Shown here: piece by piece, positions 13,979-40,910 of the stretch
Layout: every line of letters starts with the position of its first letter
How positions within the stretch are numbered: position 1 is the first letter of the stretch
Assembly (NCBI GenBank): GCA_963621535.1
Contig: CAVFEQ010000001.1
Coordinates: 18,040-82,039 of the forward strand
Direction of reading: 5' to 3'
Source: Paludibacteraceae bacterium
GTDB taxonomy: Bacteria > Bacillota_I > Bacilli_A > RFN20 > CAG-826
DNA length: 64,000 bases
The notes under the pieces: model-generated
Seen by the model: only the letters and a program-made list of their open reading frames with translations
Told to the model about the DNA's origin: nothing
Databases searched by the model: none
Translations under genes and position numbers: made by a program

Positions 13979-14582
13979 GATTGATTTTCCTCACTTGTAT
14001 CACGTGTTCTTGAGAGAGAATCTCCTCTTGGCGAAGCAAGAGGCTATTTTCATCGAAGGGGATTGTACCATTGACGTAGAGACTCGCTTCAACTTCCATC
14101 GCAAATTGCTCGCTTTTTAATTCGTAGCCATGCTTTTTGGCTAGGCGCTTCACTTCTTCGTAACGGGAATAGCTTAGGCGCAGCTGAAACTTAAGGACGT
14201 CTGTTTCCTCCCCATAGGAAGCGTTGTCGAGCGCTTCTTTCGCGGCTTCTAGGAAGCAGCGTTTGAGCCGTCCCACCCCGAGTTTTGTCCCACCGAAATA
14301 ACGGGCCACCACAAGCAGGCAGCAATCGATGTTTCTTTCTTCAAGCATCAAAAGCATCGCCTTGCCGGCGCTCCCGCCGGGTTCGCCATCATCGCTGCTT
14401 TTCTCATACCCCTTCGCCCTTAAGGCATAGGGATAATGGTCCGCCTTTGGGTGGTCGGATTTAAAAGAAGCGTAAACCTTCTCAAAAGAAAGAGGATCAT
14501 CCAGCAGAAGAGCCTCTGCCTCGAAAGAGGAAGAAAGGAGAGAGGAAAACCCTTTTCCCTTCGCTAAAACTAGACAGCTCAT
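13965..14582 (-). CDS. yigZ: YigZ/IMPACT-family protein
   Basis: Hallmark SSDDGEPGGSAGKAML and ARYFGGTKLG. ATG 14582 forms an ATGA overlap with the stop of the 2370-aa gene. Its 3' end overlaps the pepP-like start by 14 nt. Confidence 0.85.
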   Translation of the reverse strand: MSCLVLAKGKGFSSLLSSSFEAEALLLDDPLSFEKVYASFKSDHPKADHYPYALRAKGYEKSSDDGEPGGSAGKAMLLMLEERNIDCCLLVVARYFGGTKLGVGRLKRCFLEAAKEALDNASYGEETDVLKFQLRLSYSRYEEVKRLAKKHGYELKSEQFAMEVEASLYVNGTIPFDENSLLLRQEEILSQEHVIQVRKINHDPS

Positions 14583-20500: not shown

Positions 20501-21691
20501 CATGGATTGGACGACCTCCGCCCAATCAACGTCCGCGTCAGAAAGATATTTGCAGGTTTCTTCCCCAAGAACGTTCTTGACCGCGTCGAGATTGACGGCC
20601 AAAGAGACGGCGAAAGGCAAAGCGCATTGGATGAGCTTGGTTTCGGAAAGGGCGTAAATGAGCTCCGGGATGGAGGAAGAGGAAAGGAGCAAATACCACC
20701 GGATGCCCTCGCTTCCATTCGCTGAAAGCAGCCCGGCGTTGATGGCTTGCGCGGAGATATTAGCAAGAGCGGAGATCTCCGAGATCAGGTCCGTTTTGAC
20801 CTCTTTTACCTCGCTTTGTGTCAAGAAGGAGATCAATTGCTGGTCGAAAGTAGTCGACCCATCCATCGAATTCCAGGAGAAGAAGGTCTTGGCGAAAGCG
20901 CTTTGGTCATAGACGCCGAGGATGTCGGTGATCATCGAGACGGTTTCGTTTTCCTTCGCACGCTCATCCTCGACTTTGAAGCGGCCATTCACCGAATTCA
21001 CGATGCTTGTGAAGGGGGAAAGAAGCATGCCTAAGCACGCCGCCCCGATAAGGAGCTCTTCAAAAGCCGAGACCAAACGAAGCTTTTTGATCTTTCTCCG
21101 TTCACGCGGAGTGAAGCGTTTGAAGGCAATGTGCCAAAGAAGCATGATCAGAAGCATGCCAAGGGTCGACAGAAGAAGTCCCCAAACGAAAATCAGCAGA
21201 AGTTTGATGAGCGAAGAGGCGAGGACGCTTGCGTAAGAGAGCATTCCCGAATAGCTCCCGTTCGCCCCAAACGCTTCAGCGACCTGGACGATCAAATCCT
21301 CCAGGCTCGTCTGCAGGGTCGTCCATTTCACGGAGATCGCATGCTCTACCCCATCTATCGTGAGGGCGAAATTCAGATTCGGGATGTTGAATCTTTGCAA
21401 ATCCATGCCCCCTAAAGCGTTTGCCTGCAGCCCTAAAGTGGCCAAGACGGCGGTGACCATGATCGCGAAAGAAATCAAGCGGTAGGTCCCATATTTCCAG
21501 CCCCTGAGAAGGCCTCTAAGGAAAACCAGCACAAGCACTCCGAGAACAAGAATGAAAAGCACGGTCAAGGCGATATTGAGGATGTTAAGAATGTTTTGCG
21601 TCTCGATAAGAGAGGCCAGTTTAAGCAAAGTTCTCATATACCTGAAATTATGCGGTAGAAACCCTTTTCGCGCAAGCGCGCGCACAGGCAT
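14579..21691 (-). CDS. Giant polytopic membrane protein, 2370 aa, no recognised domain
   Basis: Single uninterrupted 7.1-kb ORF. There are 4-5 hydrophobic helices in the first ~230 aa, then ~2100 aa of acidic, Ser/Leu-rich sequence. Alternative start at ATG 21637 (MRTLLK), because a TATAGT -10-like hexamer ends 2 nt before ATG 21691. Confidence 0.85.
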   Translation of the reverse strand: MPVRALARKGFLPHNFRYMRTLLKLASLIETQNILNILNIALTVLFILVLGVLVLVFLRGLLRGWKYGTYRLISFAIMVTAVLATLGLQANALGGMDLQRFNIPNLNFALTIDGVEHAISVKWTTLQTSLEDLIVQVAEAFGANGSYSGMLSYASVLASSLIKLLLIFVWGLLLSTLGMLLIMLLWHIAFKRFTPRERRKIKKLRLVSAFEELLIGAACLGMLLSPFTSIVNSVNGRFKVEDERAKENETVSMITDILGVYDQSAFAKTFFSWNSMDGSTTFDQQLISFLTQSEVKEVKTDLISEISALANISAQAINAGLLSANGSEGIRWYLLLSSSSIPELIYALSETKLIQCALPFAVSLAVNLDAVKNVLGEETCKYLSDADVDWAEVVQSMSRIYENILDAGIIDCVVDVENGSPTPVFDWTQLQYVFSGKDASGNDRDAKAAMHRLTEEFEDSALFSHLMAGLLSQLGKAELEKESRADLSILDFLPLSEDEKDIDYEALVGLNYTKEFNLLYDTIYSINDVSPEVVSNVLDLVQNPPSEETSQETYRNLLSLSAKYADDYVDLLVGERDESGEPKEDSKDCLFDSFFVGNALPSMVTFIEKSGSTALDMDLKLTETKKKIEDEDWTVKDYKREFGATLDVAADFASSEAGLAFIEDGTGMAYKNGKLISIDPELVKALQNSLERSDDSLIMTEALPQVAEKYFEDFRDTLSEFGIKNIDFACEDFGHELSFLLNLISYSGDLILALNGIEGASAHLMATTLLEEKDTLVRVLDIFAGSKILNPFDAASGKRNTNIVSLLNYVFSSAGLEDFKLEDDALDGVILASERQGGDIGGEIVKAHENYLIVASLTSVPLTDLMSLAGSSGNEMMRALARIDIETLFKSIGESEVMRSVAGSAMDKYFTSVLEVGEEEGITFKNLTSAEDWEKEGATIKKIVDLATKGIDISDFDINKVSPTLARDLFSNLAKSQIFNKKAEDGSVDYKFPEFFSSKILGMLDDTSISYFADKGVNDLDASDDLSTRKEKCSTFVNNCLALKEVEDWTNDDEGGEIELFCKVLSNVQSLGGFSSLSSFSSDKLLLLRDTLNNLSSSDVFGSVLIANALSRSLDDLSSSMSSSSFDLSLANAEVFFDLDKESRVEQVVYLCDVMDTLYDPYYGLLDEDGQFQEDKMAIDKLNVDYCLRPLLEDISSSDVFTTQRAGKNETLLRSFFKTILVKSNLYGEGLEKDDEISAAHAPGITISTLVDGVSDMDQEINVFCDVVKIVQESGLLSGDSLDLSSLDSSKLSAVKSLLEQINSSDLLYRALPIQIDKAVSGLSGLPASFQADLELCDPFVMRNEGGTDYERYDDNEIACLANLLTSVSEYSDLGSASVSDLAKLDLEKTLSPLYASRVFNSTTAQSGEKKDLTSAQAFLTDILAQMGLDDLICSASSPKDIKYGTDTPSAKYKYLVSSTLGIGDDGNYKKYTLDNQQSNAFYEVIGKGDGGLSHLLSNLNEHSLLSLLEGGEIDFATLTKSSSTLSSLLKDLSHCLLLKDVPINALGKYLSNGELTVDGLDLSLTNYYYPYFYDAENATATIDYSRGYDDSEIDLLVDLLDLIESNKDDLEDDRLDTIDPYLLRQFLWELDDSLLFHQTGVNQYSSTYNKGWENESYTPSADAKVTSDLTVFEQVVYLVYNNSGLATRSFDAYHDFAYLVDAGYDESLAAELKLHGKIKALVLDSDWRVEIETLTTDDEGKSGLIRIAQESDLLTSEGKVDTSTEFLKKLSPGKAMELLRLVGRSRVCEDALATTIASFLTSGESGTKGLGVETFSTSKISLGTGDTFVSDASFLENGLKYADLYFSSSTYDGTEVSTLMGDLDGDGTYETNLNSLVASSYDVTANKWDIGLGKIGCNFKFTISKPGELSYMFDTAKYYLPYGSLEKGNKDSDALEWFLCSLRKTDGTYYSFEGSASALKEAYEAGVPLYGIASIVMGSSIYAESCFDVDFRPVSSATATFSSSAYSFYKMFSLEDASSGVKVNLLDAVDAPKLAEDYGTSVPAAARYSSIDNLIKGSDDPFAEGKFFETALVGAEYSDIVHEIVNVAFSSSSEESTKTALYRYASSLLGKEENGYADFLSSSELAYSYHIDNEVDPSYDKTKASSTSVFAKHLIAGALNDRVEERIGYAQLSSHSLGAISLSSPSAPEKERLAFLNTDDQRSLLTTSFDAYGYDSSAKAYSFANLSSLASSEGKGVAFTALLSSGISISSSSPFVDTSSMSLTACLLNSEQKTKLDGICGDFDTMSGIAKALVNLIYASDAYDYLVLKGSIAASAYQDYFFHGPIDATLLTPAYGTSDFPCTFGDGLVNGVSTAFSYVTLANEIRMSA

Positions 21692-25756: not shown

Positions 25757-27106
25757 ATGGACGACAATAAAAAACTCGGCGCGAAAAAATGGATTGCTTT
25801 CATTTTGCTTGGCTTAGCGGGGCAGCTCGCTTGGGCCATCGAGAACAACTACATCAATCTTTGGGTCTATTCCCAATCCGGCCGCGCGGACTTCATCACT
25901 TGGATGACCGTAGGAAGCGCAATCGTCGCCACCGTCACGACTTTCCTCATGGGCGCCTTGTCTGATCGTCTTGGCAAAAGACGGGTCTTCATCGCCGGCG
26001 GATACACCATTTGGGGATTTTTCGTCTTCGCCTTTGCTCTTGCCTCTTTGCGAAATGGAGTGAAGCTATGCGGGGAAGGGGCAAATGCCCTTCTTTGGGT
26101 TGGCATCATGAACGTGATCGTCGACTGCGTGATGACCTTCCTTGGTTCAACGGGGAATGATGCTTGCTTCAACGCGATGGTCACCGAGCAAACCAACGAG
26201 AAAAATCGCCCGTTCGTCGAAACCATCCTTTCCGTTTTGCCTCTTGTCGCCTTGATCATGATGATGGGGATAGGGATGATCTTCGGAGTGCCCGGCAGCC
26301 AGCAAGAAAACGAAACAATCGCCGAATACGCCTCGCGCATCGCAACCCCTTGGCTTTATTTCTTTTTGGTATGTGGGATTCTTACCACGCTTGTTGGGAT
26401 CGCCGGCTTCTTCATTCTCCCAAAAGACAAAGCCATCAAGGACCAAAGAAGCGGCTACTTCAAAAACCTCGCTTATGGCTTCTTGCCTAGCTCAATCAAG
26501 AAGCACCCCCGGTTTTACATCGCTCTCCTCGCTTTTCTTTTCTTCAACATCGCCGTCGATTCGTTCATGCCCTACTACATGGTCTATTTCCAAAGCTTCG
26601 CCGAACTTAATTTCTATCTGGCGATGGGAATCATCGTCGCCGTGGCAATCGTCGGTTCCATCGCCATCGGAGCTTTCCTTGATAAGATCGGCCATCTTAA
26701 GGTCTTGATACCGGCGATTCTGCTGATGGGAAGCGGCGCGCTTCTGCTTTTCCTAAGCCAAGCGTCATGGGTTTTGATCTTCGGAGGCTCTTTGCTGATG
26801 CTAGGCTATCTCGTGGGGACCGCGGTTTTAGGCGCGGAAATCCGCGACCAAACCCCTAAAGGGAAAGAGGGCTCCCTACAAGGCGTGCGCATGATCTTCG
26901 CGGTTATGCTGCCCATGATCATCGGCAGCAATCTCTCCTTAGCAATCTTCCAGCAGCCTGGCCTAGACGCCTATGGGCAGACGACGAAAACGCCAGATCA
27001 TTGGATGTTCCTGGTGACCTGCATTTCGGCTTTATTGACCATTCTTCCATCCCTTTGGCTTATCTTGGCGAATAGAAAAGGCGAAGAAAAAGGGAATCAG
27101 GACTGA
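25757..27106 (+). CDS. MFS transporter
   Basis: 449 aa, about 12 hydrophobic segments. Loop 2-3 motif GALSDRLGKRR. Confidence 0.85.
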   Translation: MDDNKKLGAKKWIAFILLGLAGQLAWAIENNYINLWVYSQSGRADFITWMTVGSAIVATVTTFLMGALSDRLGKRRVFIAGGYTIWGFFVFAFALASLRNGVKLCGEGANALLWVGIMNVIVDCVMTFLGSTGNDACFNAMVTEQTNEKNRPFVETILSVLPLVALIMMMGIGMIFGVPGSQQENETIAEYASRIATPWLYFFLVCGILTTLVGIAGFFILPKDKAIKDQRSGYFKNLAYGFLPSSIKKHPRFYIALLAFLFFNIAVDSFMPYYMVYFQSFAELNFYLAMGIIVAVAIVGSIAIGAFLDKIGHLKVLIPAILLMGSGALLLFLSQASWVLIFGGSLLMLGYLVGTAVLGAEIRDQTPKGKEGSLQGVRMIFAVMLPMIIGSNLSLAIFQQPGLDAYGQTTKTPDHWMFLVTCISALLTILPSLWLILANRKGEEKGNQD

Positions 27107-28884
27107 AACTCGACGTTTGCTTCGCCCGCCCCGATGTTTTTCCATTCGGAGGGGTGCTCGACCTCGCTTTCGAAGCGTTCTTCGCTCATTTCGACGGTGA
27201 TCTTATGGCCGTCCTGTCCCAATTTGGAGCAACCATAGAAAGCGCGCGAGCCAATGGAGAGAAGGCTTGAAGGAAGGGTAAAACCGGACAGGGAATAAAG
27301 CTGAGAAAAAGCGAAGGAATCCGCCTTTTGCAGGCCGGGGATTTCAAGCGTTTCCAAAGATCTATTCCCGCGGAAGGCGTTAGAGGAAACGTATTTAACA
27401 GAGCGAGGCAGGCTAACTTTCGTAAGGGAAGAGAAATAGCTTTCTGTCCCATCCCCGAATTTTTTGATCCCCACGAGCTCGAAAGCTCCAACGCCAGGGA
27501 AGGCATTAAGATCAAGCAAATCGCTTTCAACAAGCTCGCTGCTGCTGCGGCTAGAGGAGGGGACGAACTTATCCATCAAATAGCCACCCCATTCTTCGGA
27601 ATATTCGTAGGTGAATTGATCGCCTTGCTCGCCGTTGCCGTCTAGGGATTTAGGAACAATGACAGGATACAAAGAAAGGTCTTTGTCCGCTGCGCTTGAA
27701 GGATCGACCACGTCAGATTTGTCTACGTCGTTTTTTTCTATGCTCCAAAGCCCGGTGAAAATCTCGTCGCTGGAGAGAAGGCTATCATCGATCACCGTTA
27801 GAAGAACATCCCCAAGGGAGGATCCATAAGAAACCGATTTTTCGGCGATTAACGTTTCGTCGTTGCTCAGGAAGGTAATCTTGAATTCTTCAGGCGAGAC
27901 CTCGAAAACAGGGGATAAAGTACAATCGTAAAGAATGTGTTCACAATCCACGGGCTTGTCTTTTAGCTCGTCTATCCCCTCCCCATAGGTGCCCTCCCAT
28001 CCTTTAAAGGTGTAAACCTTGTGATCGGAGGTGTAATCAGGCAAAACCTTCGTGACTTTGCTCCCGTAGATAACGTTCTCGGTTTCGCTAAGTATTTCGC
28101 TCTTAGTTGAATCTTTGTAAAAGGAGACCGTATAAGACTTCGATTCAGGGCCTGCGAAAAAGGCGGTCAGCTTCAAATCGTCTTTGATTTCAATGTCGGT
28201 TTCAAAGAGCTCGTCCAGGGTATAGGTTCCGCCATCATATTCGTATCCGGCGAAAGCATAGGTTTGGTAATAATATTTCGGCAGCGGGTAATCCAAAGTA
28301 AGGGCGGTTTTAGCCGCTTCTATAGAGCCATATTCTTTCATTAAAGCATCGCTTAGTTTAGTTCCGTGTTCAACGGAGGCTGTATAGATAGAGGTGTAAT
28401 CCGCGTTTTCAATAGTCACGTTATACGTGTTGATTTTTTCGCTAAAATGAGCAAAAACTGCGCAATTCCCCTTTATTTCTTTCAAATCAACCTTAGTGTT
28501 GGCTAAATTTTCCGCAGTTGAAGATGGCTCATCCGTCGTTTCTTCGTCCAAAGCGGTTTCTTCATAAAAGCCAACCCAGGAATCCCAAGTATAGGCGTAG
28601 CCTTCTTTCGTTCGGCGGCTGTTCTCATAGTCTATCGCCTTGCCGTTTTCATCTTTCACGAGGCTAGTCAAGCGCGCGGTTTTATTCGCGCCACCTTTGA
28701 CGACATAGCCTTCGCCGATTTTCGTTGCCAAATTTTTATTGAGCTTGCCGGGTTCATATTCGATGTCGTCATAATCCGTGTAAAACTCAATGGTATAAAC
28801 ATCCGCATCCTGCTTAACGTTGCAAGATAACAAGGCAGAAGAGAGAACAAGAAGTCCAAATGCGGCGCGGAGTTTTGCGTTCAT
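27097..28884 (-). CDS. Surface lipoprotein with Listeria/Bacteroides-type repeats and C-terminal BspA-type leucine-rich repeats
   Basis: Signal peptide with lipobox LLSC. Repeats end in YTFKGWEG / FAGYEYDG / FTGLWS. The C-terminus has LRR units (SVKYVSSNAFRGNRSLETLEIP..., LLSIGSRAFYGCSKL). Confidence 0.75.
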   Translation of the reverse strand: MNAKLRAAFGLLVLSSALLSCNVKQDADVYTIEFYTDYDDIEYEPGKLNKNLATKIGEGYVVKGGANKTARLTSLVKDENGKAIDYENSRRTKEGYAYTWDSWVGFYEETALDEETTDEPSSTAENLANTKVDLKEIKGNCAVFAHFSEKINTYNVTIENADYTSIYTASVEHGTKLSDALMKEYGSIEAAKTALTLDYPLPKYYYQTYAFAGYEYDGGTYTLDELFETDIEIKDDLKLTAFFAGPESKSYTVSFYKDSTKSEILSETENVIYGSKVTKVLPDYTSDHKVYTFKGWEGTYGEGIDELKDKPVDCEHILYDCTLSPVFEVSPEEFKITFLSNDETLIAEKSVSYGSSLGDVLLTVIDDSLLSSDEIFTGLWSIEKNDVDKSDVVDPSSAADKDLSLYPVIVPKSLDGNGEQGDQFTYEYSEEWGGYLMDKFVPSSSRSSSELVESDLLDLNAFPGVGAFELVGIKKFGDGTESYFSSLTKVSLPRSVKYVSSNAFRGNRSLETLEIPGLQKADSFAFSQLYSLSGFTLPSSLLSIGSRAFYGCSKLGQDGHKITVEMSEERFESEVEHPSEWKNIGAGEANVEFQS

Positions 28885-29460: not shown

Positions 29461-29489
29461 GAGCCCTCGAAAGAGGGCTTTTCCTTTGC
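29461..29489 (+). terminator. Rho-independent terminator
   Basis: AGCCCTC-gaaa-GAGGGCT followed by TTTCCTTTG. Confidence 0.8.
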
Positions 29490-29523: not shown

Positions 29524-30576
29524 TTAATCCGCGAGGTATCTTTCTTTTGAAATGATGAATTCCCCAAATCTTGGAAGCAAGAATTCTGACTTTCCTCTTG
29601 TGGATGTACCGATAATGCCCTCATCCGACAACTTCTTTTTATATATCGCCAGGTTTCCTTTCGAAATGCCTAAAGAAGTCATGATTTCCTGATTGGTTGA
29701 ACTGCCATGGGCAATACAACTTAAGATTCTTCTATCCCCATCCGTTAGCTCATTCCATATGATTTCATATGACCATTCGGCAATTCTCGAATCGAACTCC
29801 TTAATGATGCTCGGGCTTAATTTATTAACGTTGTTTCTGTATAAAATATCACCGAGCAACTGATATGCCATAGCGTATCCCTTGGTAAATTTCGCCAGCC
29901 TGATCGACTCGGCCTCAGATATATCGAAGGTTGTTTCGTATGAATGCGCGATACCTGAAATCGAAAGGGGCGAAAGGCTTACCTTAGGAGATCTGTACAA
30001 AAACGTTAAAGATTTGTCCGCCTCTAATTTGGATATGTTTTTCCTAAGGCCAGTCATCAACAGTTTAACCTCGTAATGATCAATCAAAAAGCCTTGATAT
30101 GACCTAATGAAGCTGACCATTTCCTCATTTTTGGCAACGTCATCGATTGCAATGAGAACGCGAACGCCTTTATCCGCGAAATACTTAAATAACTTTTCTA
30201 GATAAACTTCGATGTTCGTTATTGGCTTTTCGCCTTTCACTTGGAAAGTCAAACCTGAGAAAGAAAACGAAAACTCTAATTTAAGAGACCTGATTTTTGA
30301 TACGCCATTGTCGTATAAGACGCTGGCTAATTGCTCAAGCATATTCTTCGATTGGGTAAGCCTAGCAACAATCCAACCCTCTTTTTCCCGGTATATGTCG
30401 AGGATATGACTTAATGTCACGGTTTTGCCGCATCCCCTGGGACCGGTGATGATATAGACCGTGTTTCTAACGTAGTCAGAATTGAAATCTTCCAGTATGG
30501 GTTCAATTTGTTGGTCTCTCTCGATAACTTTCTTGTTGATCCTGCCAAACGAAATTGAAAATGGGTTTTGAGTCAT
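29524..30576 (-). CDS. AAA+/STAND-like P-loop ATPase with C-terminal winged-helix DNA-binding domain
   Basis: Walker A GPRGCGKT, Walker B VLIAIDDV. C-terminus DGDRRILSCIAHGSSTNQEIMTSLGISKGNLAIYKKKLSDEGII is HTH-like. AGGGAGGAG lies 5 nt upstream of ATG 30576. The gene is visibly more AT-rich than its neighbours. Confidence 0.75.
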   Translation of the reverse strand: MTQNPFSISFGRINKKVIERDQQIEPILEDFNSDYVRNTVYIITGPRGCGKTVTLSHILDIYREKEGWIVARLTQSKNMLEQLASVLYDNGVSKIRSLKLEFSFSFSGLTFQVKGEKPITNIEVYLEKLFKYFADKGVRVLIAIDDVAKNEEMVSFIRSYQGFLIDHYEVKLLMTGLRKNISKLEADKSLTFLYRSPKVSLSPLSISGIAHSYETTFDISEAESIRLAKFTKGYAMAYQLLGDILYRNNVNKLSPSIIKEFDSRIAEWSYEIIWNELTDGDRRILSCIAHGSSTNQEIMTSLGISKGNLAIYKKKLSDEGIIGTSTRGKSEFLLPRFGEFIISKERYLAD

Positions 30577-30601
30577 GCATTCTCCTCCCTTCATCCGAAA
30601 G

Positions 30602-30685
30602 CATTGTACTTCATTGTACTTTGAAAAACAAATTGTACTTCATTGTACTTTGAAATAATCTTTGTACTTCATTGTACTTTTGAAA
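30602..30685. repeat. Three tandem 29-bp units, each with two TTGTACTT cores (6 cores in total)
   Basis: TTGTACTTCATTGTACTTTGAAA occurs at 30604 and 30633, and TTGTACTTCATTGTACTTTTGAAA at 30662. Core starts are 30604, 30614, 30633, 30643, 30662 and 30672. The array lies 28-110 nt upstream of the ATPase ATG. Confidence 0.95.
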
Positions 30686-30983
30686 GAAGGGCTGATTAAC
30701 GCTCGACTCTATTGTATTCAACAAGAAGCAAAAGCACGGCTTTGCAGCACTCAGATGGACACATGAGCGGTCCGCGATGCGGTCGATCTCAGGCCCGTTA
30801 AGCGGGACGTTTCTTTTTGTTTCGTCTTTGACGCCCCATTCTTTGCTTAACGCCGTATCTTCCCCTATTTCCCCATAGGCCATGGACCATTCAATTTATG
30901 GGGCGAGTCATCGTTTAGCAGCGCTCAAACCGTTGATTTAGCCCTAAAATATATAGTCCTATTACTTAGGAAAGCATTCCTTT

Positions 30984-31010
30984 GAAAAAAAGCCCAGCCG
31001 AAGCTAGGCT
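30984..31010 (-). terminator. Rho-independent terminator of the CarD-like gene
   Basis: Minus strand AGCCTAGC-ttcg-GCTGGGCT followed by TTTTTTT. Confidence 0.85.
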
Positions 31011-31027
31011 TAGATCTCTCGTTTAGA

Positions 31028-32699: not shown

Positions 32700-33797
32700 A
32701 TGCTATTTAAAAAGTCCGGAAAAAAAGAAAACCCCGAAAGCGAAACCTCCTTAGTCGCGGAAAAAGAAGCCGCAAAAGAGGAGATGAGCGCGAATCCATC
32801 CGCGGAAAGCGTCCCCAATACAAAGGCGCAAGAGGGTGACAAAAGCGGCAAAAGAAAGCCGAAGTCACGCAAAAAAGTCATCATCACCTCTTCCATCATC
32901 GGAACCGCGGCAATCGGCTTAGGGGTCGTCACGGGCTTCTTAGCTCACAGTTTTCTGAATCCCGTCGGAGGCGATTATTCCAACGTCGACGCCGACGCTT
33001 TGACTGACAACATCGAAATCGCCCGAAAAAAATATGAGGACGCAAAGAAAGCCGGAACGCCTCTAGAAGAAGCCCTGAAACCCTCTGAGATGGTGAACCT
33101 CTCCCTGGATATGTTCGCTTCGCTAGGCTCCACCAAAGCAGTCGGCCTAGGCTCAGCCTTCTCGATGGGCGTGACCCAGGTAATCCAATCCATCCAGATA
33201 AAAAATGGGGAAAGGTTCTTCGAGGAATCCAACTCCACCTCAGCCTTCGTCAACCTCTACGACCGAATGTACCAAGAAGGCGACACCACCAAAACCTACT
33301 GGGGCAAAAGCAGTGATTACTCTTCACACGAAGAGAAAATCTACACAAACGAGGCATACGCCGAGCTCATGGGCCGCAAGGTGAGCGACTCGATGATCTA
33401 TGTCATCTCCACGAAAACCGCGATCGTCGACGAAGACAAAGTCAACTCGGACAAGGGCGTCTCGCGAATCACCAAGGAAAACGGGGGCTATACGGTAGAC
33501 CTCGAGCTCCAAAAGAAAAAATCCGTGGTGAATTACGTGAAGCAGATGAAGAACATCTCCGGATTAACCGGATACCCAACCTTCGATTATTGCCACCTCA
33601 CCTTCCACCTAGACGAAGACCTGATGCCGCTTGATTACACTTCCTACGAAAAGTATCACGCCACCAAGCAAGGGGTCGGCATATCCACCGCTATCGACGG
33701 AACGTTAACCACCTACTTCTACCATGGTGAGACCTACGAAATCCCGACCTTGGAAACCGAGACTCAATCCGTTTACGAAAGCTTAACCGCCAATTGA
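32700..33797 (+). CDS. TM-anchored ORFan, ~365 aa (cassette gene A)
   Basis: Lys/Glu-rich N-terminus, one TM (VIITSSIIGTAAIGLGVVTGFLA), then a ~270-aa mixed domain with no recognised motif. Start uncertain (32700 or 32631); neither has a Shine-Dalgarno sequence. Confidence 0.65.
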   Translation: MLFKKSGKKENPESETSLVAEKEAAKEEMSANPSAESVPNTKAQEGDKSGKRKPKSRKKVIITSSIIGTAAIGLGVVTGFLAHSFLNPVGGDYSNVDADALTDNIEIARKKYEDAKKAGTPLEEALKPSEMVNLSLDMFASLGSTKAVGLGSAFSMGVTQVIQSIQIKNGERFFEESNSTSAFVNLYDRMYQEGDTTKTYWGKSSDYSSHEEKIYTNEAYAELMGRKVSDSMIYVISTKTAIVDEDKVNSDKGVSRITKENGGYTVDLELQKKKSVVNYVKQMKNISGLTGYPTFDYCHLTFHLDEDLMPLDYTSYEKYHATKQGVGISTAIDGTLTTYFYHGETYEIPTLETETQSVYESLTAN

Positions 33798-33814
33798 ATT
33801 TGAAAGGAGCGATT

Positions 33815-36800
33815 ATGAAAACAAACAAAAGCCAAAAACATCTTAGCCCAAAGAAAAAAGCCCTGCTCTTCAACTCCGGCCTTTTCCTAGCTCTCTTCGG
33901 AATCACCGCGGGGACCACCTACTTCATGATTCCCAACAAAGGAATGGCGGAAGATGAGGACATCGTCGACGTGGATGATGATGACGTCGACCCCGCTTTG
34001 ACCGGCAAGCAGCGCTTCATTTCCAACCTCACCAGCAGCGCGACTTCCGGATTGAATCTCAAGTTCAACGTCTTGGACGCCTATTTCCCAGGGAAAGACA
34101 AAAACGACACCTCCAAAGGCAATTTCATCAACGGGAAAGGAACCCAACTCGCCTTCGCCATGGATGGGCTCTCTCTCCACGGCATCAGCCTCGGATTAAA
34201 AGCCAAACTCGATTACAACGGCTACAATAGGCAACTCGACCTCGTTAAGCGCCTTGATGACATTTACTTTGCCATCAATGACCTAGATAACGAAACCTAC
34301 AACTTCAAATACAAAGCCTCCATCGAGCCTAAAGTCACGGGCGAACGCGACGAAATCACCGGAGGCATCCTCCAATACGAATACGGCGACGTCGATTGGA
34401 TCATCTCCGACGTTCTCGAGATTCTTTCAAACGGGGGCATCAAGGTCGACTTCCCCTCGATCGATTTAAGCAGTCTCAGCTCTTCTTCCGATTCCTCTAG
34501 CGCTTCCGACGAAGATGGCTCTAACGCCATGTCCGACATCTTGGGCTCGCTTAACGACATGGTCGAAGACGCCGCTCATTCCTATTTCACCTGGAATCTG
34601 CCTTTAGGCGAAGAAACCCTCTCCATCGGCTTCACTTACGATAGTGACTACTATCTCAGCGGCGTCGATTTCCCAGCGAAAACATTCGACGGCTCTGAAC
34701 AAGCAAGCTATTCGATCAAAAACGGCGATACCCTCATCGGCACCATCCGTGCCAGCGCAACCATCGAAACCGGTAGCGAGGCAATCGAGTGGACTTCCTT
34801 CATCTCCGGCGATCTCAACGAATACCGCGACATCAAAGACAGCGCTTCGCTTTTCCGCAAAATCGCCCGTTACGTCGCTAATCCCCAATTCGGATTGAAG
34901 ACCACGAACTCCTTGAACATCAACTCAGGAAAAGGGCTTGCTCTCACCCATTATAAGAAAGATGGGAGCAACCTCACTTCTGAGGTAATCGAGACCGCTT
35001 CCCTTGATCTTTCCGCCAGCGCCGACTTCACCGGTGGGCTGCAGAATTTCCTCGCCGACCTCTCTTTCTCCGCCGACAACGCCGAGGCAAGCATTTCCGC
35101 GGCTTATCTAGAAGAGAACGCCTACCTCAATATCGATGACCTTTTGATGGCCAAGGTCTCCAAGACCAATCTCGATGCCCTGTTCGCCAAAACCGCTTCC
35201 GCGGTCAACGAAAATAGCGAAGTCGAAGAAAGCGCTGAAGAAGCGAGCGCGATTGTCGACCTCGTTTCGACAGTCCTTGACAACTTCCCGACGATCAAAA
35301 GCTTCACCGAGGGCCATTACGAGAAGGCGTTTGATTTCATCAAATCCATCGATGGCTCCGACAATAATCTTAGCATCACCTTTGATCTGAGCCCCGTTAA
35401 AATCGATGGGGAGGTCACCGTCAACATCGACGGGACGTATGCAGATGAAGATAACGGCGTCGACACCTATCTTTCCGGCATCACCTTCAAAGAAGTAAAG
35501 CTAAGCGCCTTCCAGCTCGATGGCACTTTGTCTCTTGCCTCCTATTCATTGCCAAGCGTCGACATAAGCAGCTATGACGAGCTCATCCATCTCCCCGGCA
35601 TCAAGAACCAAATCGAGGAAATCACCTCCTCGAAAGAAGCCGCTCTCTTTTTGAAAGGAAGCGTCAAAACCGGGTCGACGGACACCATCGGCCAAACCAC
35701 AGGAGTCAACTTCTCTGGCGATCTTGGCTTCTCTTATGACAAGAAAACAGCCGGAATCAGCCTGACCGCCAATCAGGTCTCGAAGAACTATTCGCAGGAC
35801 CACCACTTCAAATTCGCCCTCACAGGCGATGGGAACGATTTCACGGAAACCGCCTTCAAATACGATTCAATGAATGACTCCGCCATCGATAGCGCCTCGG
35901 GCTTAGACGAAGAAGGAAAGGCCAGAACCAACCCACGCTCCCTTAAGCCCGTCACCGGGCAAATGTCGATCTCCTCGATGAAAGACATCATCTCCACCAT
36001 CAAAAGCGTCATCCCCGAGGAAGAAGAAAGCGAAACCTCTTCCTTCCAAAAGATCGCAAGCTCAATCGGAAGCTTAGTCGGCGGGGATTTGGCAAGCGAC
36101 CTCATCAACAAGAAATACTCCGGCCTCTTCGAGAAAAAGATCCTGGCCGAGAAAGCAAGCCTAGGCGGGGATGAAAACAAATTCGTTCTAAACGGCGCCT
36201 TGTTCGGACTAGAAGAGAATCCGACCGTCACTATCTCTTACCTCGCCAATAGCGAAGAATCTAGCGGCGGCTTCAAGAGCTTCGATTTCGCGATGAGCAA
36301 AATCAACGTTGGCTTAGGCATCGAATCCACCAAAGACGTCTCCGAAAGCATCCTCAATCCTTTAAGCGGCGAGGACACTTCTTCCTACACCGACTTCAAC
36401 ACGGTCAAGACCCTCGCTGAATACGCAACCGGATCGACGAAGCTTGGCCAAATCGCCTCGGGAGACACCTCCGTCTATGACGTCTCGCTCAACGTCGCCC
36501 TCAATATTGGCAAGACGAAAATCGACCTCATCGGCGTAAGCTTAAACATCGCAAGCGAAAAGGATTACATCAAAGCGCATCTTTCCATTCCGTTCATGCC
36601 ACTGATCAAAGGGGTCAACGCTCCTGATAGCGCCGTCTATTTCCGCGATCACGAATATGAAGGAAGACGCGCGGTCGATCTTTATTATTCTTATCAAAAA
36701 GGCGACGAGAACTACGGCGACATCTATATCACCCGCAACTCGAGCTATGGCAAAGTGACCGAAGTCAAAGACACGGTCCAATTGACCGGCAAAGACCTCG

Positions 36801-37438
36801 TCGCGAAAACAGGCGACGAAGGCGGAACCTATTCCTATAACGGCATCGGCTGGCTTCTTGAATACGTCCTTGGGGTCAATGAAAGCTATCTGAGAAAAGA
36901 AAACGCGCCCGTAGAGGAAAACGCCACCGCTGAGGCGAGTCAAAAAGAAGGCAGCAGCCTCTTTGATAACGCCTTCCCCCATCCAGAAGACTTCCTCAAA
37001 GAATACCAATACGATGAAGCGAGCCTCTCTTGGTCGCTTGGGGTCGATGTGGGCTCCTTGCTTGATGAAAGGGCCTTGCTTGGCGATGCCATGGTCACTG
37101 TCTCAGGCAAGAACGTCGCTTCAAGCGATTCCTCGACCTCTTGGAAGACCTTAAGCGGGCTAGCCATCAGCTTCGGCCTAGTCCTTGGCAATCCCGACGG
37201 CTCCCATCAAATCGTCCCGGCGAGCGCGGAAATTGAGCTCGCTTTGGACAATGTTTCCACCGGCGTCTACCAAGACACCTGGACCAATCTCACCGTCAAT
37301 GACTTCACCTCCGTCGTCACTTACAACGAGCAAGGCGAAGTGTCCTTCGCTTATGGCGATGAATACACGAAACATTATAAGAAAGAAGGAGAAGCCTCTT
37401 TCTTGCCGGGCAACTACTACGTTGGCGTGACTTGCTAA
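33815..37438 (+). CDS. TM-anchored large beta-rich ORFan, ~1207 aa (cassette gene B)
   Basis: AAAGGAG lies 5 nt upstream of ATG 33815. N-terminus KKKALLFNSGLFLALFGITAGTTYF is a TM or uncleaved signal. Collinear paralog of gene C. Confidence 0.85.
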   Translation: MKTNKSQKHLSPKKKALLFNSGLFLALFGITAGTTYFMIPNKGMAEDEDIVDVDDDDVDPALTGKQRFISNLTSSATSGLNLKFNVLDAYFPGKDKNDTSKGNFINGKGTQLAFAMDGLSLHGISLGLKAKLDYNGYNRQLDLVKRLDDIYFAINDLDNETYNFKYKASIEPKVTGERDEITGGILQYEYGDVDWIISDVLEILSNGGIKVDFPSIDLSSLSSSSDSSSASDEDGSNAMSDILGSLNDMVEDAAHSYFTWNLPLGEETLSIGFTYDSDYYLSGVDFPAKTFDGSEQASYSIKNGDTLIGTIRASATIETGSEAIEWTSFISGDLNEYRDIKDSASLFRKIARYVANPQFGLKTTNSLNINSGKGLALTHYKKDGSNLTSEVIETASLDLSASADFTGGLQNFLADLSFSADNAEASISAAYLEENAYLNIDDLLMAKVSKTNLDALFAKTASAVNENSEVEESAEEASAIVDLVSTVLDNFPTIKSFTEGHYEKAFDFIKSIDGSDNNLSITFDLSPVKIDGEVTVNIDGTYADEDNGVDTYLSGITFKEVKLSAFQLDGTLSLASYSLPSVDISSYDELIHLPGIKNQIEEITSSKEAALFLKGSVKTGSTDTIGQTTGVNFSGDLGFSYDKKTAGISLTANQVSKNYSQDHHFKFALTGDGNDFTETAFKYDSMNDSAIDSASGLDEEGKARTNPRSLKPVTGQMSISSMKDIISTIKSVIPEEEESETSSFQKIASSIGSLVGGDLASDLINKKYSGLFEKKILAEKASLGGDENKFVLNGALFGLEENPTVTISYLANSEESSGGFKSFDFAMSKINVGLGIESTKDVSESILNPLSGEDTSSYTDFNTVKTLAEYATGSTKLGQIASGDTSVYDVSLNVALNIGKTKIDLIGVSLNIASEKDYIKAHLSIPFMPLIKGVNAPDSAVYFRDHEYEGRRAVDLYYSYQKGDENYGDIYITRNSSYGKVTEVKDTVQLTGKDLVAKTGDEGGTYSYNGIGWLLEYVLGVNESYLRKENAPVEENATAEASQKEGSSLFDNAFPHPEDFLKEYQYDEASLSWSLGVDVGSLLDERALLGDAMVTVSGKNVASSDSSTSWKTLSGLAISFGLVLGNPDGSHQIVPASAEIELALDNVSTGVYQDTWTNLTVNDFTSVVTYNEQGEVSFAYGDEYTKHYKKEGEASFLPGNYYVGVTC

Positions 37439-37439
37439 A

Positions 37440-40400
37440 ATGCCTAGAGAAGAGAAAAGCCAAAACCCTATCCGGGAGCGAAAGAAATCTTTCTCTCCCT
37501 TAAAGCGCCTAGCTCTAGGCGTTTTGGCTTTTTCTATGGCTTCCTGCTCTTTTTCTAAGACAACAAGAGAAGATCAAGGCGAAAGCAAGAGCGAAGAAAG
37601 CAGCCACGTGAGCGAAAGCGTCGGCGCCAAGCGCCTCGCGGAGAGCCTAACAAACTCCCTCACCTCAGGCTTATCGCTCACGCTTGAAGAAATGACCTTG
37701 AAGGCGGATGAGAACAATGTCTTCGAATTCAGCAACGGCTCTCTCGCTTTCGATTTAAAAGAGCTTTCCTTGCACGGCTTGAATTTCGCTTTGCAGGCCG
37801 AGGGTAGCTACAACGGTTCCGGAGGGAGATCCATTGACGCAAGGCTTGTAGATGACGAGCTTTATTTCGCCCTGGAAGCGCCAGGATCTTCAACTGCCAC
37901 CTACAACGTCGCCTACAAAGTCTCCACAAGCGCTTATCGCTATGAGACGGAAGATAGCCGCGATCCCTTGACCGGAGGCATCAAGCAATACGAATTCGGC
38001 AGACTCGACTGGGTTTTGGAAGACATCCTCCAAATCCTTTCTTCCTACGGATACGAGGTGAAGCCAAATTTCAAAAACACCTCCAAGGTCGACTTCGGAA
38101 AAATCTCTTCTTCCTTGGATGAACTTAACGAAATCGACGCAGAAAGCCATTATTTTGTTTGGAATCTTCCTTTAGGCGATACTGTTTATTCCATCGGCTT
38201 GCAAGGCGATGAGGATTATTATCTTTCTAAAATCGATTTCCCGGCGAAGGGGATCGGGGCTTCTGGAACATTAAGCAATGGCATGGAATTAAGCCTTTCC
38301 GCATCCTTTGATTATAACGGGGCTCAAATCACGCCCCCGGAGAATGCCTCAGCTTACCTTTCTTTGGACAATTCCATTGATCTATGGGAAAGAATTGCCA
38401 CCTACGCCGGCAAGCTTTCCTTTGATGTCTCCACCGTTCACAACGAAAACGGCAACGAGGAAGAAGGATTGCTATTGACCCATCACGAAGACGCCGTAGA
38501 GAGCACCGCGACCACTATCGGGCGCCAGGGATTCGACGAAAAGCTCACCTTCTCCCTTGCTGGCGGGGCCAATTTCCAAAATCAGAGAATCAACGACCTT
38601 TCCATCAGCGCCGTCTTCAAAGGCGAGAAGCAAACCAAGAAGCTGTCCGGACATTACGTCCAAGGAGATAACGGCAAAGAGGCTTACGTAGACGTAAACG
38701 GGATCTTGAAGGCAAAGACCAGCAAGACCACCGCGGACGCCTTCTTCAGCGCTTTTGCCGATTTATTGGCGGACGATTCCATCAAAAACGAATACCTCTC
38801 TTCCTTATTTTCCTCCCTTGGCTCCATCACCGATGCTTTCGCAAGCCTGAGAGATAGTCTGATTGGAAAAGACATCGCCGAAAACCATTATGAGCATTTC
38901 CTTGAGGCGTTGATCGCTTTAGAAAGCAAGGACAATCAAATCGAGGCAACCTTCGATTTTGGCAAAGCGGGCGGGGAAGGGAAACTCATCTTCCGTTTAA
39001 GCAGCAGCGACTTCGCTTTGGCTTCCATCACCTTCGCCTCTTTCTCCATTGGCGGCTTCGGCGTGGAAGGAACCTTAAGGATCAGCGATTACTCCGGCCC
39101 CTCTTCCTTTGACAAAGAGCAATACGAAGAGATGGATCATCTGCCCAGCTTGACCGATCAGCTGCAAAACCTCTATCAGCACCATTCCATGAAAGCCAGC
39201 GTGCGCGGCTATGTGCTCGACCGCAGCACAACCGCCTATTCTACCGACACGCGCTTCTCTTCGCTAAACGGCAAAGTCATCACCGAGCAAGGGTTCACCC
39301 TCGAAGGCGATTTCGCCTTCAACCTTCAGGAAAAAGCGGCGCGCGCGAATGGGGTTTTCCTTGACCGCAAGGCCGATTACCTAAATGAGCACGCGATCGC
39401 CTTGCAATTAGACGGAGAAATCGGCGCAAGCACGGAAACAGGCGACATGCTTTTCTCTTATGACTCAAGCAACACCTTGAAAAACGCTAACGCCGAGGGC
39501 TATGGCGCTTTGGATTATGGCAACATCAGCGAGCCCGACCAAGAAACGCTCTATGGCAAATTCAGCGTCGCCTCCTTGAACGACATTTTAGAGCTCGCGA
39601 CCACCTTATTGAGCTCAGACGACCCGCGCTTCACCAAATTCACTTCGAATGCGAATACCCTAGCCACCACCCTCGTGGCCAAAATCTCCCAAGGCCAATT
39701 CGCCCCGCTGCTAAGCGAGCAGATTCTTAGAAGCGTGAGCCGCTCCGGCGATAAAATCGCTGCCGTTGTCGCAAAAGAGGTTTTAGGAAGCGAAGAGGAC
39801 GTCCCTCTAAACATCGAATTCGACGCGAACGGACTTTCCTCAATCGATTTCAAATTAATCACCGAAAGCAAAGAGATTTACTTCAAAATCGACGCAGAAG
39901 TCCCTCAAACGACTCTATCAAAAGCCGATTTGCAAGTTTCTGAGCTGCAATCGAAAAGGGATTCGATGACCGATTTCTCTTCCCTTTCAACCCTGCTTGA
40001 ATACGCTTTGGGATCGGCCACGCTAGGAGAAGACGACAAAAATACGTCCACGTATCACCTAAGTGGAACGGCACAAATAAAAATCCTTTCCGTTTTCACC
40101 GAGAAAGTCCCCTTTTCGATTTATGTCTCTTTAGACGGCGCCGAAGTGAAAGTCATAGGGACAATTGAGGTCCCGATGGTTGTTGGAGTCAACGGAGGAA
40201 GCACACTCGGAGGAACGCGCTACGTGGAATTTTATTTCCATACCTCGGGGAATGATTCAGACGGAACGATCTTCTTCCACCGCGTGAGTTACGCAAAAGG
40301 GCTCACGAGCCTAGCGACCTCCGTCAGCGAAGATTGGGCGAAAGTCAAAACAAGCGATTTCACTGCCAACATCATGAACTGGATGCTTGGCTATGTGATG

Positions 40401-40910
40401 GGGATGAACTCGACGATCATGAACCAAATAACCAAACCAAGCTCAGAAAAAGGATCCTCCCTGCACGGAGAGGAATTGATTTCTTCCTACGCCCATTCCG
40501 CTTCTAACGGGACGCAGATCTGGAACGCGAAGATGGATTTGAGCTCATTGTCCAGCTCCTTGACTTCACCCTTAGAGATCAAAATCGAGGGAAAGGAAGT
40601 TAACGTCGGAAGTACAAAGCAAAAAACCTTAACCGCCCTAAGCGGCAGCGTTGGTTTAGTCTCAGTGATTTCCATCTCCTTTAACGCCGCATTAGCCAAC
40701 GTTTCTACTGGGACTTACGTTTCCGTTTGGAACAGGAACTCCAGCTCCTCGGATGACAAATTGACCTTCCATTCCAAAAACGACAAATCGGTCAATAGCA
40801 ATGAAGTCCACGCCGCCGATGCCTACGCCGCCAACTACTATGACGATGGCTATGTAACTAGCGGCTATTTTGCCTCCGCCACCACTTACGTGACCTATCC
40901 CATCAGTTAA
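37440..40910 (+). CDS. Large beta-rich lipoprotein ORFan, 1156 aa (cassette gene C, paralog of B)
   Basis: Starts 1 nt after the stop of B. Signal peptide with lipobox-like MASC. Shares blocks with B, for example HYFVWNLPLGDTVYSIGLQGDEDYYLSKIDFPAK against SYFTWNLPLGEETLSIGFTYDSDYYLSGVDFPAK. Confidence 0.85.
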   Translation: MPREEKSQNPIRERKKSFSPLKRLALGVLAFSMASCSFSKTTREDQGESKSEESSHVSESVGAKRLAESLTNSLTSGLSLTLEEMTLKADENNVFEFSNGSLAFDLKELSLHGLNFALQAEGSYNGSGGRSIDARLVDDELYFALEAPGSSTATYNVAYKVSTSAYRYETEDSRDPLTGGIKQYEFGRLDWVLEDILQILSSYGYEVKPNFKNTSKVDFGKISSSLDELNEIDAESHYFVWNLPLGDTVYSIGLQGDEDYYLSKIDFPAKGIGASGTLSNGMELSLSASFDYNGAQITPPENASAYLSLDNSIDLWERIATYAGKLSFDVSTVHNENGNEEEGLLLTHHEDAVESTATTIGRQGFDEKLTFSLAGGANFQNQRINDLSISAVFKGEKQTKKLSGHYVQGDNGKEAYVDVNGILKAKTSKTTADAFFSAFADLLADDSIKNEYLSSLFSSLGSITDAFASLRDSLIGKDIAENHYEHFLEALIALESKDNQIEATFDFGKAGGEGKLIFRLSSSDFALASITFASFSIGGFGVEGTLRISDYSGPSSFDKEQYEEMDHLPSLTDQLQNLYQHHSMKASVRGYVLDRSTTAYSTDTRFSSLNGKVITEQGFTLEGDFAFNLQEKAARANGVFLDRKADYLNEHAIALQLDGEIGASTETGDMLFSYDSSNTLKNANAEGYGALDYGNISEPDQETLYGKFSVASLNDILELATTLLSSDDPRFTKFTSNANTLATTLVAKISQGQFAPLLSEQILRSVSRSGDKIAAVVAKEVLGSEEDVPLNIEFDANGLSSIDFKLITESKEIYFKIDAEVPQTTLSKADLQVSELQSKRDSMTDFSSLSTLLEYALGSATLGEDDKNTSTYHLSGTAQIKILSVFTEKVPFSIYVSLDGAEVKVIGTIEVPMVVGVNGGSTLGGTRYVEFYFHTSGNDSDGTIFFHRVSYAKGLTSLATSVSEDWAKVKTSDFTANIMNWMLGYVMGMNSTIMNQITKPSSEKGSSLHGEELISSYAHSASNGTQIWNAKMDLSSLSSSLTSPLEIKIEGKEVNVGSTKQKTLTALSGSVGLVSVISISFNAALANVSTGTYVSVWNRNSSSSDDKLTFHSKNDKSVNSNEVHAADAYAANYYDDGYVTSGYFASATTYVTYPIS

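Follow-up and report, generated by a model that had tools for sequence, protein, structure and literature searches.

Results

An ATPase gene and its upstream repeat array

The DNA analyzed here, a 64,000-nt stretch that we call the window, is a piece of housekeeping chromosome that carries the ATP synthase operon, ClpB, GlpK, HypB, and tRNAs, together with genes for a CarD-like protein and for MFS, YhhN, and Ham1 proteins. Within it, a minus-strand gene (29524 to 30576) encodes a 350-amino-acid protein with an ATPase_2 P-loop domain, a helical lid, and a C-terminal winged helix. A bidirectional terminator-like hairpin lies 44 nt past its stop codon (29461 to 29480), and the terminator-like hairpin of the upstream CarD-like gene (30990 to 31011, minus strand) bounds the promoter region of the ATPase gene at 30577 to 30989. 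With terminator-like hairpins on both sides, the gene is monocistronic. We placed its start at the ATG at 30576 because the RBS GGGAGGAG (30582 to 30589, minus strand) sits 5 nt before it and because all homologues have M-x-NPF N termini; a longer open reading frame starting at 30594 is probably not used. Another open reading frame, which runs through the array (30611 to 30883, minus strand, 90 amino acids), was rejected: a strain-specific 174-bp indel breaks it, and other loci have nothing equivalent.

The array itself comprises six exact copies of the core TTGTACTT, which begin on the plus strand at 30604, 30614, 30633, 30643, 30662, and 30672, with steps of 10, 19, 10, 19, and 10 bp and a total span of 30604 to 30679. 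The cores form three head-to-tail pairs, 10 bp apart inside a pair and 29 bp from pair to pair. On the gene strand, where the core reads AAGTACAA, these are a promoter-proximal pair (30604 to 30621), a middle pair (30633 to 30650), and a distal pair (30662 to 30679). An AT-rich spacer (30622 to 30632) separates the proximal from the middle pair, and a second (30651 to 30661) separates the middle from the distal pair. The longer sequence TTGTACTTCATTGTACTTTGAAA lies at 30604 and again at 30633, and a third copy, at 30662, has one extra T. Tandem Repeats Finder described the array as a 29-bp period in 2.8 copies with a score of 122. Inverted arms were not found inside the array; all of the repeats are direct and lie within 76 bp.

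The six-fold repeat is a real, non-random feature. Eight copies of the TTGTACTT 8-mer were present in the window against 0.61 expected, and none of 100 shuffles gave at least eight; six of these copies make up the array, and the other two are singles within coding regions. The 18-mer TTGTACTTCATTGTACTT occurred three times in the window against 0.00 expected, even with three mismatches allowed. No second array of such geometry was found elsewhere in the 64-kb window.

A preliminary description of this DNA had reported the same core positions and spacings, and these proved exact, whereas the gap that it gave between array and ATG (28 nt) is in fact 27 nt between the proximal core and the ATG at 30576. 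It had also seen the −10-like hexamer TACAAT in each core on the gene strand, which is true of five of the six; the sixth reads TACAAA. Its placement of all cores on one face of the helix holds within a pair but not across the array, where the 29-bp period rotates by about −86 degrees, so that the drift from end to end amounts to roughly half a turn (at 10.5 bp per turn).

The 29-bp unit is polymorphic among strains, which carry either a two-unit or a three-unit allele, and strains with the two-unit allele are without the spacer that bears the −35-like element described below. The identity of the cores within one array could partly reflect slippage; given this polymorphism, it is weaker evidence of selection than is conservation across loci.

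A bacterial branch of the ATPase_2 family

The Pfam family PF01637 (ATPase_2) is described as an "ATPase domain predominantly from Archaea." The protein in the window matched it above the cutoff (36.1 bits versus 33.2; amino acids 20 to 151) and also matched the HTH_24 winged helix (22.5 bits versus 21.9; amino acids 281 to 322), and it is by membership a bacterial branch of ATPase_2. These two matches bear out the P-loop ATPase with a C-terminal winged helix that had been proposed from the sequence. The NB-ARC profile scored 19.6 bits, below its cutoff of 23.5, and nSTAND3 and nSTAND5 were likewise below threshold. The Walker A motif is GPRGCGKT (amino acids 44 to 51), and the acidic residue of Walker B is D145; G45, R47, G48, G50, K51, and D145 were invariant in an alignment of 39 homologous sequences. 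The winged-helix domain spans about amino acids 276 to 345, with the start of the recognition helix, GISKGNLAIY, at about amino acids 303 to 312. An N-terminal NPFxxxFG motif and a beta-hairpin were highly conserved, as judged from the alignment and the structural model.

Sequence searches gave few other relationships. A search of PDB sequences returned only a MarR/AdcR-like resemblance of the C-terminal domain, with no Orc/Cdc6 match, and at E values of up to 1, the Pfam and NCBIfam models for Cdc6/ORC AAA and Cdc6_C did not match the ATPase. The Pfam and NCBIfam matches included no Rep family, and the Pfam matches no DnaA. No informative family emerged from the NCBIfam and PADLOC searches, and a fold search of BFVD returned only generic AAA+ proteins.

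The fold was more informative. In a Foldseek search, the AlphaFold (AF2) model of the ATPase (pLDDT of 87.7) had 2qen, 1fnn, 2qby, and 2fna as its top matches, with 2qen (TM 0.65) and 2fna (TM 0.61) ranking first and fourth at a probability of 1.00. The Orc1/Cdc6 matches (1fnn_A, 2qby_A/B, 1w5t, and 2v1u), which include DNA-bound forms, had E values of 1.6e-11 to 1.2e-08 but TM scores of only 0.45 to 0.54; as far as fold is concerned, the likeness to Orc1/Cdc6 architecture that was suspected at the outset is correct. The fold matches also included plant NLR and Avs4 NODs.

Array geometry is conserved while the repeated word varies

Database searches recovered 562 relatives of the ATPase at an E value below 1e-5, nearly all of them proteins of about 349 amino acids in Bacilli, Anaeroplasma-like, and Lachnospiraceae genomes of the gut and rumen. 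When 1.84 billion representatives were searched with a profile, 529 clusters of about 350 amino acids were returned at E values of up to 1e-30. Most homologues carry a precomputed PF01637 match, and pseudogenized copies of the family gene are frequent among the homologue loci. A search of the literature found no publication on the ATPase family or its arrays.

We took 80 homologue genomic loci and read the 200 to 260 bp upstream of each gene. Nearly every locus had its own short word there, in 3 to 10 copies. Core-to-core steps, counted in 76 homologous loci, were 10 bp in 187 cases and 19 bp in 93, with few of 20 or 29 bp. In the homologue arrays, one to four cores follow one another at 10-bp steps to form a cluster, and AT-rich spacers, 9 nt long in 99 of 119 cases, lie between the clusters. 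Of 68 arrays, 41 had three clusters; six cores were the modal number (22 of 68), and the commonest single layout among the 68 was three clusters of two, as in the window.

The word, in contrast to the geometry, differs from lineage to lineage. Relatives at least 55% identical share the window's word, AAGTACAA. The words of more distant relatives are ATGACAA, ATGACCAA, AGTTATAA, AGTGTGAA, AGTATGA, GATATAAA, ACAGTAA, AGTCTAAA, ATATACACAA, TTGCACAA, and others. The same design recurs in cultured organisms, with the homologue on pNP95 of Pseudobutyrivibrio xylanivorans (seven copies of ATACTAAAGG) and that of Lactobacillus crispatus (six copies of AGTAAAATGA), the latter named "NB-ARC domain-containing protein" in RefSeq. 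Members from these two species have the accessions WP_151625962.1 and WP_005721691.1, respectively, and other cultured carriers of the family are Butyrivibrio sp. X503 and Su6, Anaeroplasma bactoclasticum ATCC 27112, and Jingyaoa shaoxingensis NSJ-46. No such array was found upstream of the Actinobacterial relatives, which are about 25% identical.

Arrays of this geometry went with family genes alone. Across the 64-kb window and about 700 kb of homologue loci, each one lay before a family gene, 61 of them adjacent and 3 slightly farther upstream. The 96-kb L. crispatus replicon yielded no second array, and its cognate word occurred beyond the array as scattered singles at the rate expected from composition. 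Viral and JGI metagenome contigs, among which gut Firmicutes are few, were also scanned for AAGTACAANNAAGTACAA and gave mostly single chance matches or unrelated 10-bp satellites; the only true arrays were at loci L173 and L182, both from termite gut, the former with a 30%-identical homologue.

Words and recognition helices change together

When the winged helices were aligned beside the words, the start of the recognition helix was seen to change along with the word. The window's word, AAGTACAA, goes with SKGNLAIYK, ATGACAA with NNSAIQVYK, and ATGACCAA with SNGNLQTYK. In addition, (N/S)KDSFS.YR accompanies AGTGTGAA, ..N.FNPYR accompanies ACAGTAA, TT.QFSVYR accompanies GATATAAA, and KLSNFNNYR accompanies ATATACACAA. 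Some of the contrasts come down to one residue against one base, as between Q-M-Y or Q-V-Y with ATGACAA and Q-T-Y with ATGACCAA.

The remainder of the winged helix served as an internal control. Among pairs of proteins with an ATPase-domain identity of 0.5 to 0.7, which are not phylogenetically independent, those with the same word had an identity of 0.67 in the recognition helix versus 0.51 in the rest of the winged-helix domain, and those with different words had 0.35 versus 0.40. The 40 to 50% bin of ATPase identity gave the same pattern. Because the pairs are not independent, P values for this covariation are only indicative. Such a reversal relative to the internal control is the signature expected of a specificity determinant. 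Paralogues within the same assembly (21 loci in 9 assemblies) always had different words, which by itself is not significant (about 0.3 by chance, as a rough estimate).

A reading of the arrays as upstream open reading frames or RNA repeats was set aside: ATG or GTG is present in only some of the words, and the words vary with the DNA-binding helix.

Promoter and RBS elements lie among the cores

At 45 of 67 loci, the best sigma-70-like match overlapped the array, in one of two arrangements. Class 1 loci, mostly of Lachnospiraceae type, have a consensus TTGACA 5 to 10 nt ahead of the first core, then the first pair, which takes up the 17-nt spacer, and then TAAAAT or TATAAT, with the two other clusters in the leader. 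In several cases the RBS (aAGGAG) is supplied by the last pair, which ends 1 to 3 nt before the ATG. In class 2, of Bacilli type and including the window's close relatives, the −35 element (TTGAAA or TTGAAT) is inside the last spacer and the −10 element comes after the last cluster, 19 to 25 nt before the ATG. Both classes have a core pair between the −35 and −10 hexamers. The interleaving of promoter and binding sites suggested by the preliminary description recurs in the family: at most loci, either a −35-like and a −10-like hexamer flank a pair of cores or the array extends into the RBS.

In the window, the putative promoter consists of TTGTTT (30631 to 30626), which lies in the spacer between the proximal and middle pairs, followed after 17 nt by TACAAT (30608 to 30603, minus strand), which is the proximal core plus one base. 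The −35-like hexamer is weak (3/6), and a consensus promoter scanner reported no promoter in the window array, the TACAAT falling below its threshold. Homologues L004, L006, L007, and L008 have TTGAAT, TTGAAA, or TAGAAA at the same place as in the window, followed after 17 nt by TACAAT or CACAAT, and the window's TTGTTT corresponds to the conserved acTTGnnn of the close homologues.

Discussion

A candidate self-operator

We propose, with a probability of roughly 0.7, that the array is a cognate operator on which the ATPase oligomerizes and so represses its own promoter. The decisive part of the case is comparative: array geometry is constant while the words vary, the words track the recognition helix, and the arrays are exclusive to family genes. 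The other part is that the array overlaps the promoter and that the adjoining gene is monocistronic and encodes a protein with invariant Walker A and B residues, a winged helix resembling MarR/AdcR-type DNA-binding domains, and a fold like those of archaeal ATPase_2 proteins and of DNA-bound Orc1/Cdc6. The neighboring protein very probably uses the repeat as a private docking site on DNA. The preliminary description had left two alternatives, a replication or partition module of an integrated element and a self-regulated NTPase that oligomerizes on its own promoter; the second is favored by the conserved family geometry, by the covariation of word and helix, and by the promoter and RBS elements among the cores, and the first fared poorly, as set out below.

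The mechanism that we envisage is as follows. Winged helices would sit head to tail on the DNA, each reading one 10-bp unit. With ATP, the AAA+/STAND-like domain would self-associate, making binding cooperative, and the array would be occupied as a unit. In the modal layout of three pairs, three dimers would make up a hexamer. Because loci have from 3 to 10 cores, a fixed hexamer cannot hold throughout the family. One may speculate, from the slow helical drift and the conserved AT-rich spacers of 9 nt, that the oligomer wraps or spirals the DNA. An occupied pair between the −35-like and −10-like hexamers would exclude RNA polymerase and result in negative autoregulation, holding the gene at a set level until the nucleotide or oligomeric state of the protein changed. 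In other lineages, the occupied cores would extend instead into the leader and RBS.

The sign of regulation in this scheme is read from position alone: a pair between the −35 and −10 hexamers is where a repressor would be expected to sit. The same operator might instead serve positive or bistable autoregulation, with the upstream pairs recruiting or stabilizing RNA polymerase and the ATP-bound oligomer switching on its own gene. Loci of the window's class do have two of their three clusters upstream of the −35-like element (−40 to −100), a typical position for an activator, and the STAND regulators MalT and AfsR are activators that act on direct repeats. We nevertheless consider activation unlikely, given that every class has one cluster in the −35/−10 spacer and that the Lachnospiraceae class has its other clusters beyond the start site and on the RBS, all of them repressor positions.

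Genomic context and other roles

A self-repressing operator could also be no more than the control layer of a sentinel, for example against phage or stress, whose ATP-driven oligomer, once triggered, would target other DNA or proteins. Several properties of the family agree with such a role. The ATPase gene is AT-richer than its surroundings (40.3% versus 49.7% GC), and family genes were more than 5 GC points below their surroundings at 19 of 73 loci. Recurrent neighbors are other orphan ATPases, Fic-like, AlbA_2-like, and toxin-antitoxin genes, and IS elements. Together with the frequent pseudogenes, these features give the profile of accessory, island-associated genes, for which a sentinel or defense role is possible; several orthogonal paralogues can share a genome, and the conserved NPFxxxFG motif and beta-hairpin are not otherwise explained. 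The sentinel would, however, have to act without an effector domain, since the best 150 representatives are all about 350 amino acids long or fragments (nearly all 340 to 370 amino acids or shorter), and without a conserved partner gene or operon, none having been found in 79 homologue loci. PADLOC-DB gave no significant defense family: the best match (E value of 7e-05) covered only the P loop (amino acids 14 to 64), and matches to PADLOC CARF3 were limited to the HTH. We therefore regard action on other targets, with self-repression as control only, as improbable.

An iteron-type origin with an ORC-like bacterial initiator, whether active or relic, would account for the AAA+ and C-terminal winged-helix fold, which matches that of Orc1/Cdc6 with Foldseek E values of 1.6e-11 to 6.3e-11, and for repeats that adjoin the gene. 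Several gene/repeat pairs per genome, each with private specificity, are likewise reminiscent of haloarchaeal orc/origin pairs (PMC3936714, PMC3528665). The locus nevertheless has none of the surroundings of an origin or of a mobile replicon. Its repeats are direct and overlap the promoter and RBS, and an AT-rich unwinding element between inverted repeats is absent. Cumulative GC skew keeps falling through the locus without a turn, and no mobility, integrase, Rep, or Par genes were found in the window, whose chromosome is of the housekeeping kind. ORB-like repeats are also missing, as are Pfam matches to Cdc6, Rep, or DnaA, which speaks against the replication or partition module first envisaged. 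Nor does an integrated element fit: homologues were found in none of 50,697 phage records and in only 16 of 72,556 plasmid records, where at least one "plasmid" carries trpS, metG, and tyrS and looks chromosomal, and paralogues with differing words occur within one genome. We judge an origin very unlikely.

Similarly slight is the chance that the array is a centromere-like or DNA-organizing site which, like ParR/parC or TubR/tubC, nucleates a segregation or chromosome-structuring complex. Clusters of 10- to 12-bp direct repeats embedded in an autoregulated promoter are indeed the design of parC and tubC, but here a filament-forming or ParA-type operon partner is lacking, the binder itself carries the NTPase, and the arrays are chromosomal, multicopy, and orthogonal. 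Finally, a nonfunctional slippage repeat, or one read by another host factor, would suit the polymorphic copy number of the 29-bp unit but is scarcely credible when position and geometry are kept across hundreds of diverged lineages despite differing words and when those words change together with the recognition helix of the adjacent protein.

Implications of a self-operator

With the cognate self-operator as the preferred reading, the combination of gene and array, repeated in hundreds of gut and rumen lineages, seems to represent a hitherto undescribed family of ATP-driven DNA switches that regulate themselves. More tentatively, this would be a widespread bacterial family of minimal ORC-fold ATPases acting as self-contained switches, in which an ATP-dependent oligomer of three dimers occupies a private three-cluster array, a simple, evolvable code between helix and word insulates copies in the same genome from one another, and the role is that of a sentinel or an epigenetic switch instead of an ordinary regulator.

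ATPase_2 proteins are common in archaea and bacteria and are represented by two crystal structures, but as far as we know, neither a target nor a function has been assigned to them. The present locus and its hundreds of relatives give them a testable candidate DNA ligand and a likely mode of action, in which they would occupy a phased array over their own promoter cooperatively and in a nucleotide-dependent way. If the reading as a switch family is right, this would be the first DNA target, and hence a route to function, for an ATPase_2 fold shared with archaea; the array by itself does not reveal the cellular role of the family. The orthogonal pairs of protein and word amount to a ready-made table of winged-helix specificity and a possible source of insulated repressors. 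The locus also places an Orc1/Cdc6-like architecture in bacteria, apparently for the control of transcription rather than for replication.

Comparison with known systems

By analogy, the locus would work most like the STAND/AAA+ regulators that act on direct repeats, the parC/ParR centromere-operators, and the archaeal Orc1/Cdc6 proteins with private sites, yet it departs from the defining features of each because it has no sensor domain, no partner motor, and neither an origin structure nor membership in the Orc sequence family.

The best structural likeness is to the archaeal ATPase_2 proteins PABY2304 (PDB 2qen) and SSO1545 (PDB 2fna), which belong to the same Pfam family, are also about 350 amino acids long, and have the same domain layout; they differ in being archaeal and in having only about 15% sequence identity. 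We know of no DNA target or function assigned to either protein and of no cognate repeat array described for them.

The Orc1/Cdc6 proteins share the order of domains and the fold (1fnn, 2qby, and 2v1u) and, like the present ATPase, are encoded beside their own repeats. When several Orc1/Cdc6 paralogues are present in archaea, each relies on the site next to it (PMC3936714), and at archaeal origins inverted ORBs flank an unwinding element (PMC4010727). The family described here is bacterial, is outside the Orc sequence family, bears no origin signature, and has short, direct 10-bp units that overlap the promoter and RBS. Iteron replicons (Rep_3/RepA, with 17- to 22-bp iterons) differ in having a Rep-family initiator and a plasmid, phage, or integrated-element context.

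The STAND regulators MalT, AfsR/SARP-STAND, GutR, and IniR resemble the ATPase, with its proposed oligomerization, in fusing an NTP-dependent oligomerizing ATPase to a DNA-binding domain, and MalT and the SARPs bind direct repeats at promoters. The ATPase domain of IniR has been modeled on SSO1545 (PMC5760070). STAND regulators are, however, proteins of 800 to 1,100 amino acids with sensor or repeat domains and an HTH of the LuxR or SARP type, and they mostly activate other operons, whereas the ATPase family is a minimal 350 amino acids, ends after the winged helix without TPR, SUPR, or WD40 repeats, and has its own gene as its only visible target.

In the ParR/parC and TubR/tubC systems, clusters of head-to-tail 10- to 12-bp repeats are likewise interleaved with a promoter and are coated cooperatively with autoregulation, both of which we infer for the present arrays. 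ParR and TubR are small RHH or winged-helix binders without an NTPase, encoded in a plasmid operon with ParM or TubZ; the binder described here, in contrast, carries its own ATPase, stands alone, and is chromosomal. Although OmpR and PhoB belong to another protein family and are governed by phosphorylation of a receiver domain rather than by a P-loop ATPase, they place a winged helix, as we propose for the ATPase, on tandem 10-bp half-sites arranged head to tail, with several such 20-bp sites in a row near the −35 element.

Base composition of the ATPase gene

The gene encoding the window's ATPase_2 family protein (29524 to 30576, minus strand) has a GC content of 40.3%, compared with 49.7% for the window and 47 to 53% for the neighboring genes. 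The genomes holding its closest homologues are 35 to 45% GC. The low GC content of the gene relative to the window and its neighbors suggests that it was acquired relatively recently from a lower-GC lineage.

Strain variation upstream of the ATPase gene

We compared the array upstream of the ATPase gene (window 30603 to 30689) with that in six contigs from strains of the window's species and found that the number of 29-bp units varied. Three units were present in the window and in L295, L296, and L299, while the other three contigs (L297, at about positions 950 to 1010, L298, and L300) had two units, or four cores, and were missing the spacer bearing the −35-like hexamer TTGTTT (window 30631 to 30626, gene strand). 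This difference between two and three units might alter expression of the ATPase gene.

Upstream of the array lies a 174-bp intergenic segment (window 30744 to 30917) that was found in the window, L295, L296, and L299 and was missing from L297, L298, and L300. The segment is bordered by the near-identical 9-mers GAGCGCTGC and GAGTGCTGC, and from these borders it looks like either a small insertion accompanied by a target duplication or else a deletion between repeats. There was no second copy elsewhere in the window.

Neighboring genes and host labels

The window also carries a BspA-like LRR lipoprotein gene (27097 to 28884) and three very large open reading frames (ORFs) of 2,370 amino acids (14579 to 21691), 1,214 amino acids (33794 to 37438), and 1,156 amino acids (37440 to 40910), none of which could be assigned to a family. 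The last two adjoin and are preceded by a 388-amino-acid ORF that had no match in Pfam or NCBIfam. Looking across the homologue loci, we found that further orphan P-loop ATPase genes recurred less than 4 kb from family genes, in both orientations (L007, L017, L019, L020, L026, L038, L050, L051, and others). Judged by sequence, these are taken to be of putative ATPase_2-plus-DUF234-like and AAA_14/DUF4143-like types. A Schlafen/AlbA_2-like gene was likewise recurrent, and the flanks of family genes hint at islands of stand-alone ATPases.

Two sets of database labels affect how the distribution of the family is read. The 96-kb replicon NZ_CP083394.1 (L301/L302), labeled Lactobacillus crispatus plasmid p1, carries trpS, metG, tyrS, glmU, rsmA, and purR. 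Despite its label, this record is probably either part of a chromosome or a chromid, and plasmid counts for the family are therefore overestimated. The "cleanbin" assemblies (L002, L009, L017, L021, L026, L038, and others) bear labels that include Bacteroides uniformis, Prevotella, and Parasutterella, but the contigs so labeled are 30 to 45% GC and encode the Firmicutes-type family, often in several copies per bin. The organism labels of this project thus look unreliable, and host ranges of the family should not be inferred from them.

Distant and degraded copies

A 1,550-nt termite-gut metagenome contig (L173) encodes a homologue about 30% identical to the window protein, preceded by 12 copies of AGTACAAA, a word almost identical to that of the window. 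L182, likewise from termite gut, also carries a true array of this kind. The recognition helix of the L173 homologue, KEKNYLSTYR, is unlike that of the window protein, and such a near-identical word paired with a different helix may reflect convergent specificity.

The L173 homologue gene is frameshifted, and family copies are truncated or frameshifted at L032, L033, L055, L058, and L079. Some degraded copies (L055 and L079) retain full arrays; others have only array remnants, with a single pair at L032.

Conserved protein motifs

Two motifs are among the most conserved in the family: NPFxxxFG at the N terminus (residues 1 to 11, window about 30544 to 30576) and a beta-hairpin, EFSFSFxGxSFxxKG (residues 98 to 116, window about 30229 to 30285). 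The hairpin is inserted C-terminal to helix 2 of the ATPase domain, and in the predicted structure it has a pLDDT below 50. Initiator-type AAA+ proteins have their specific insert at the same place.
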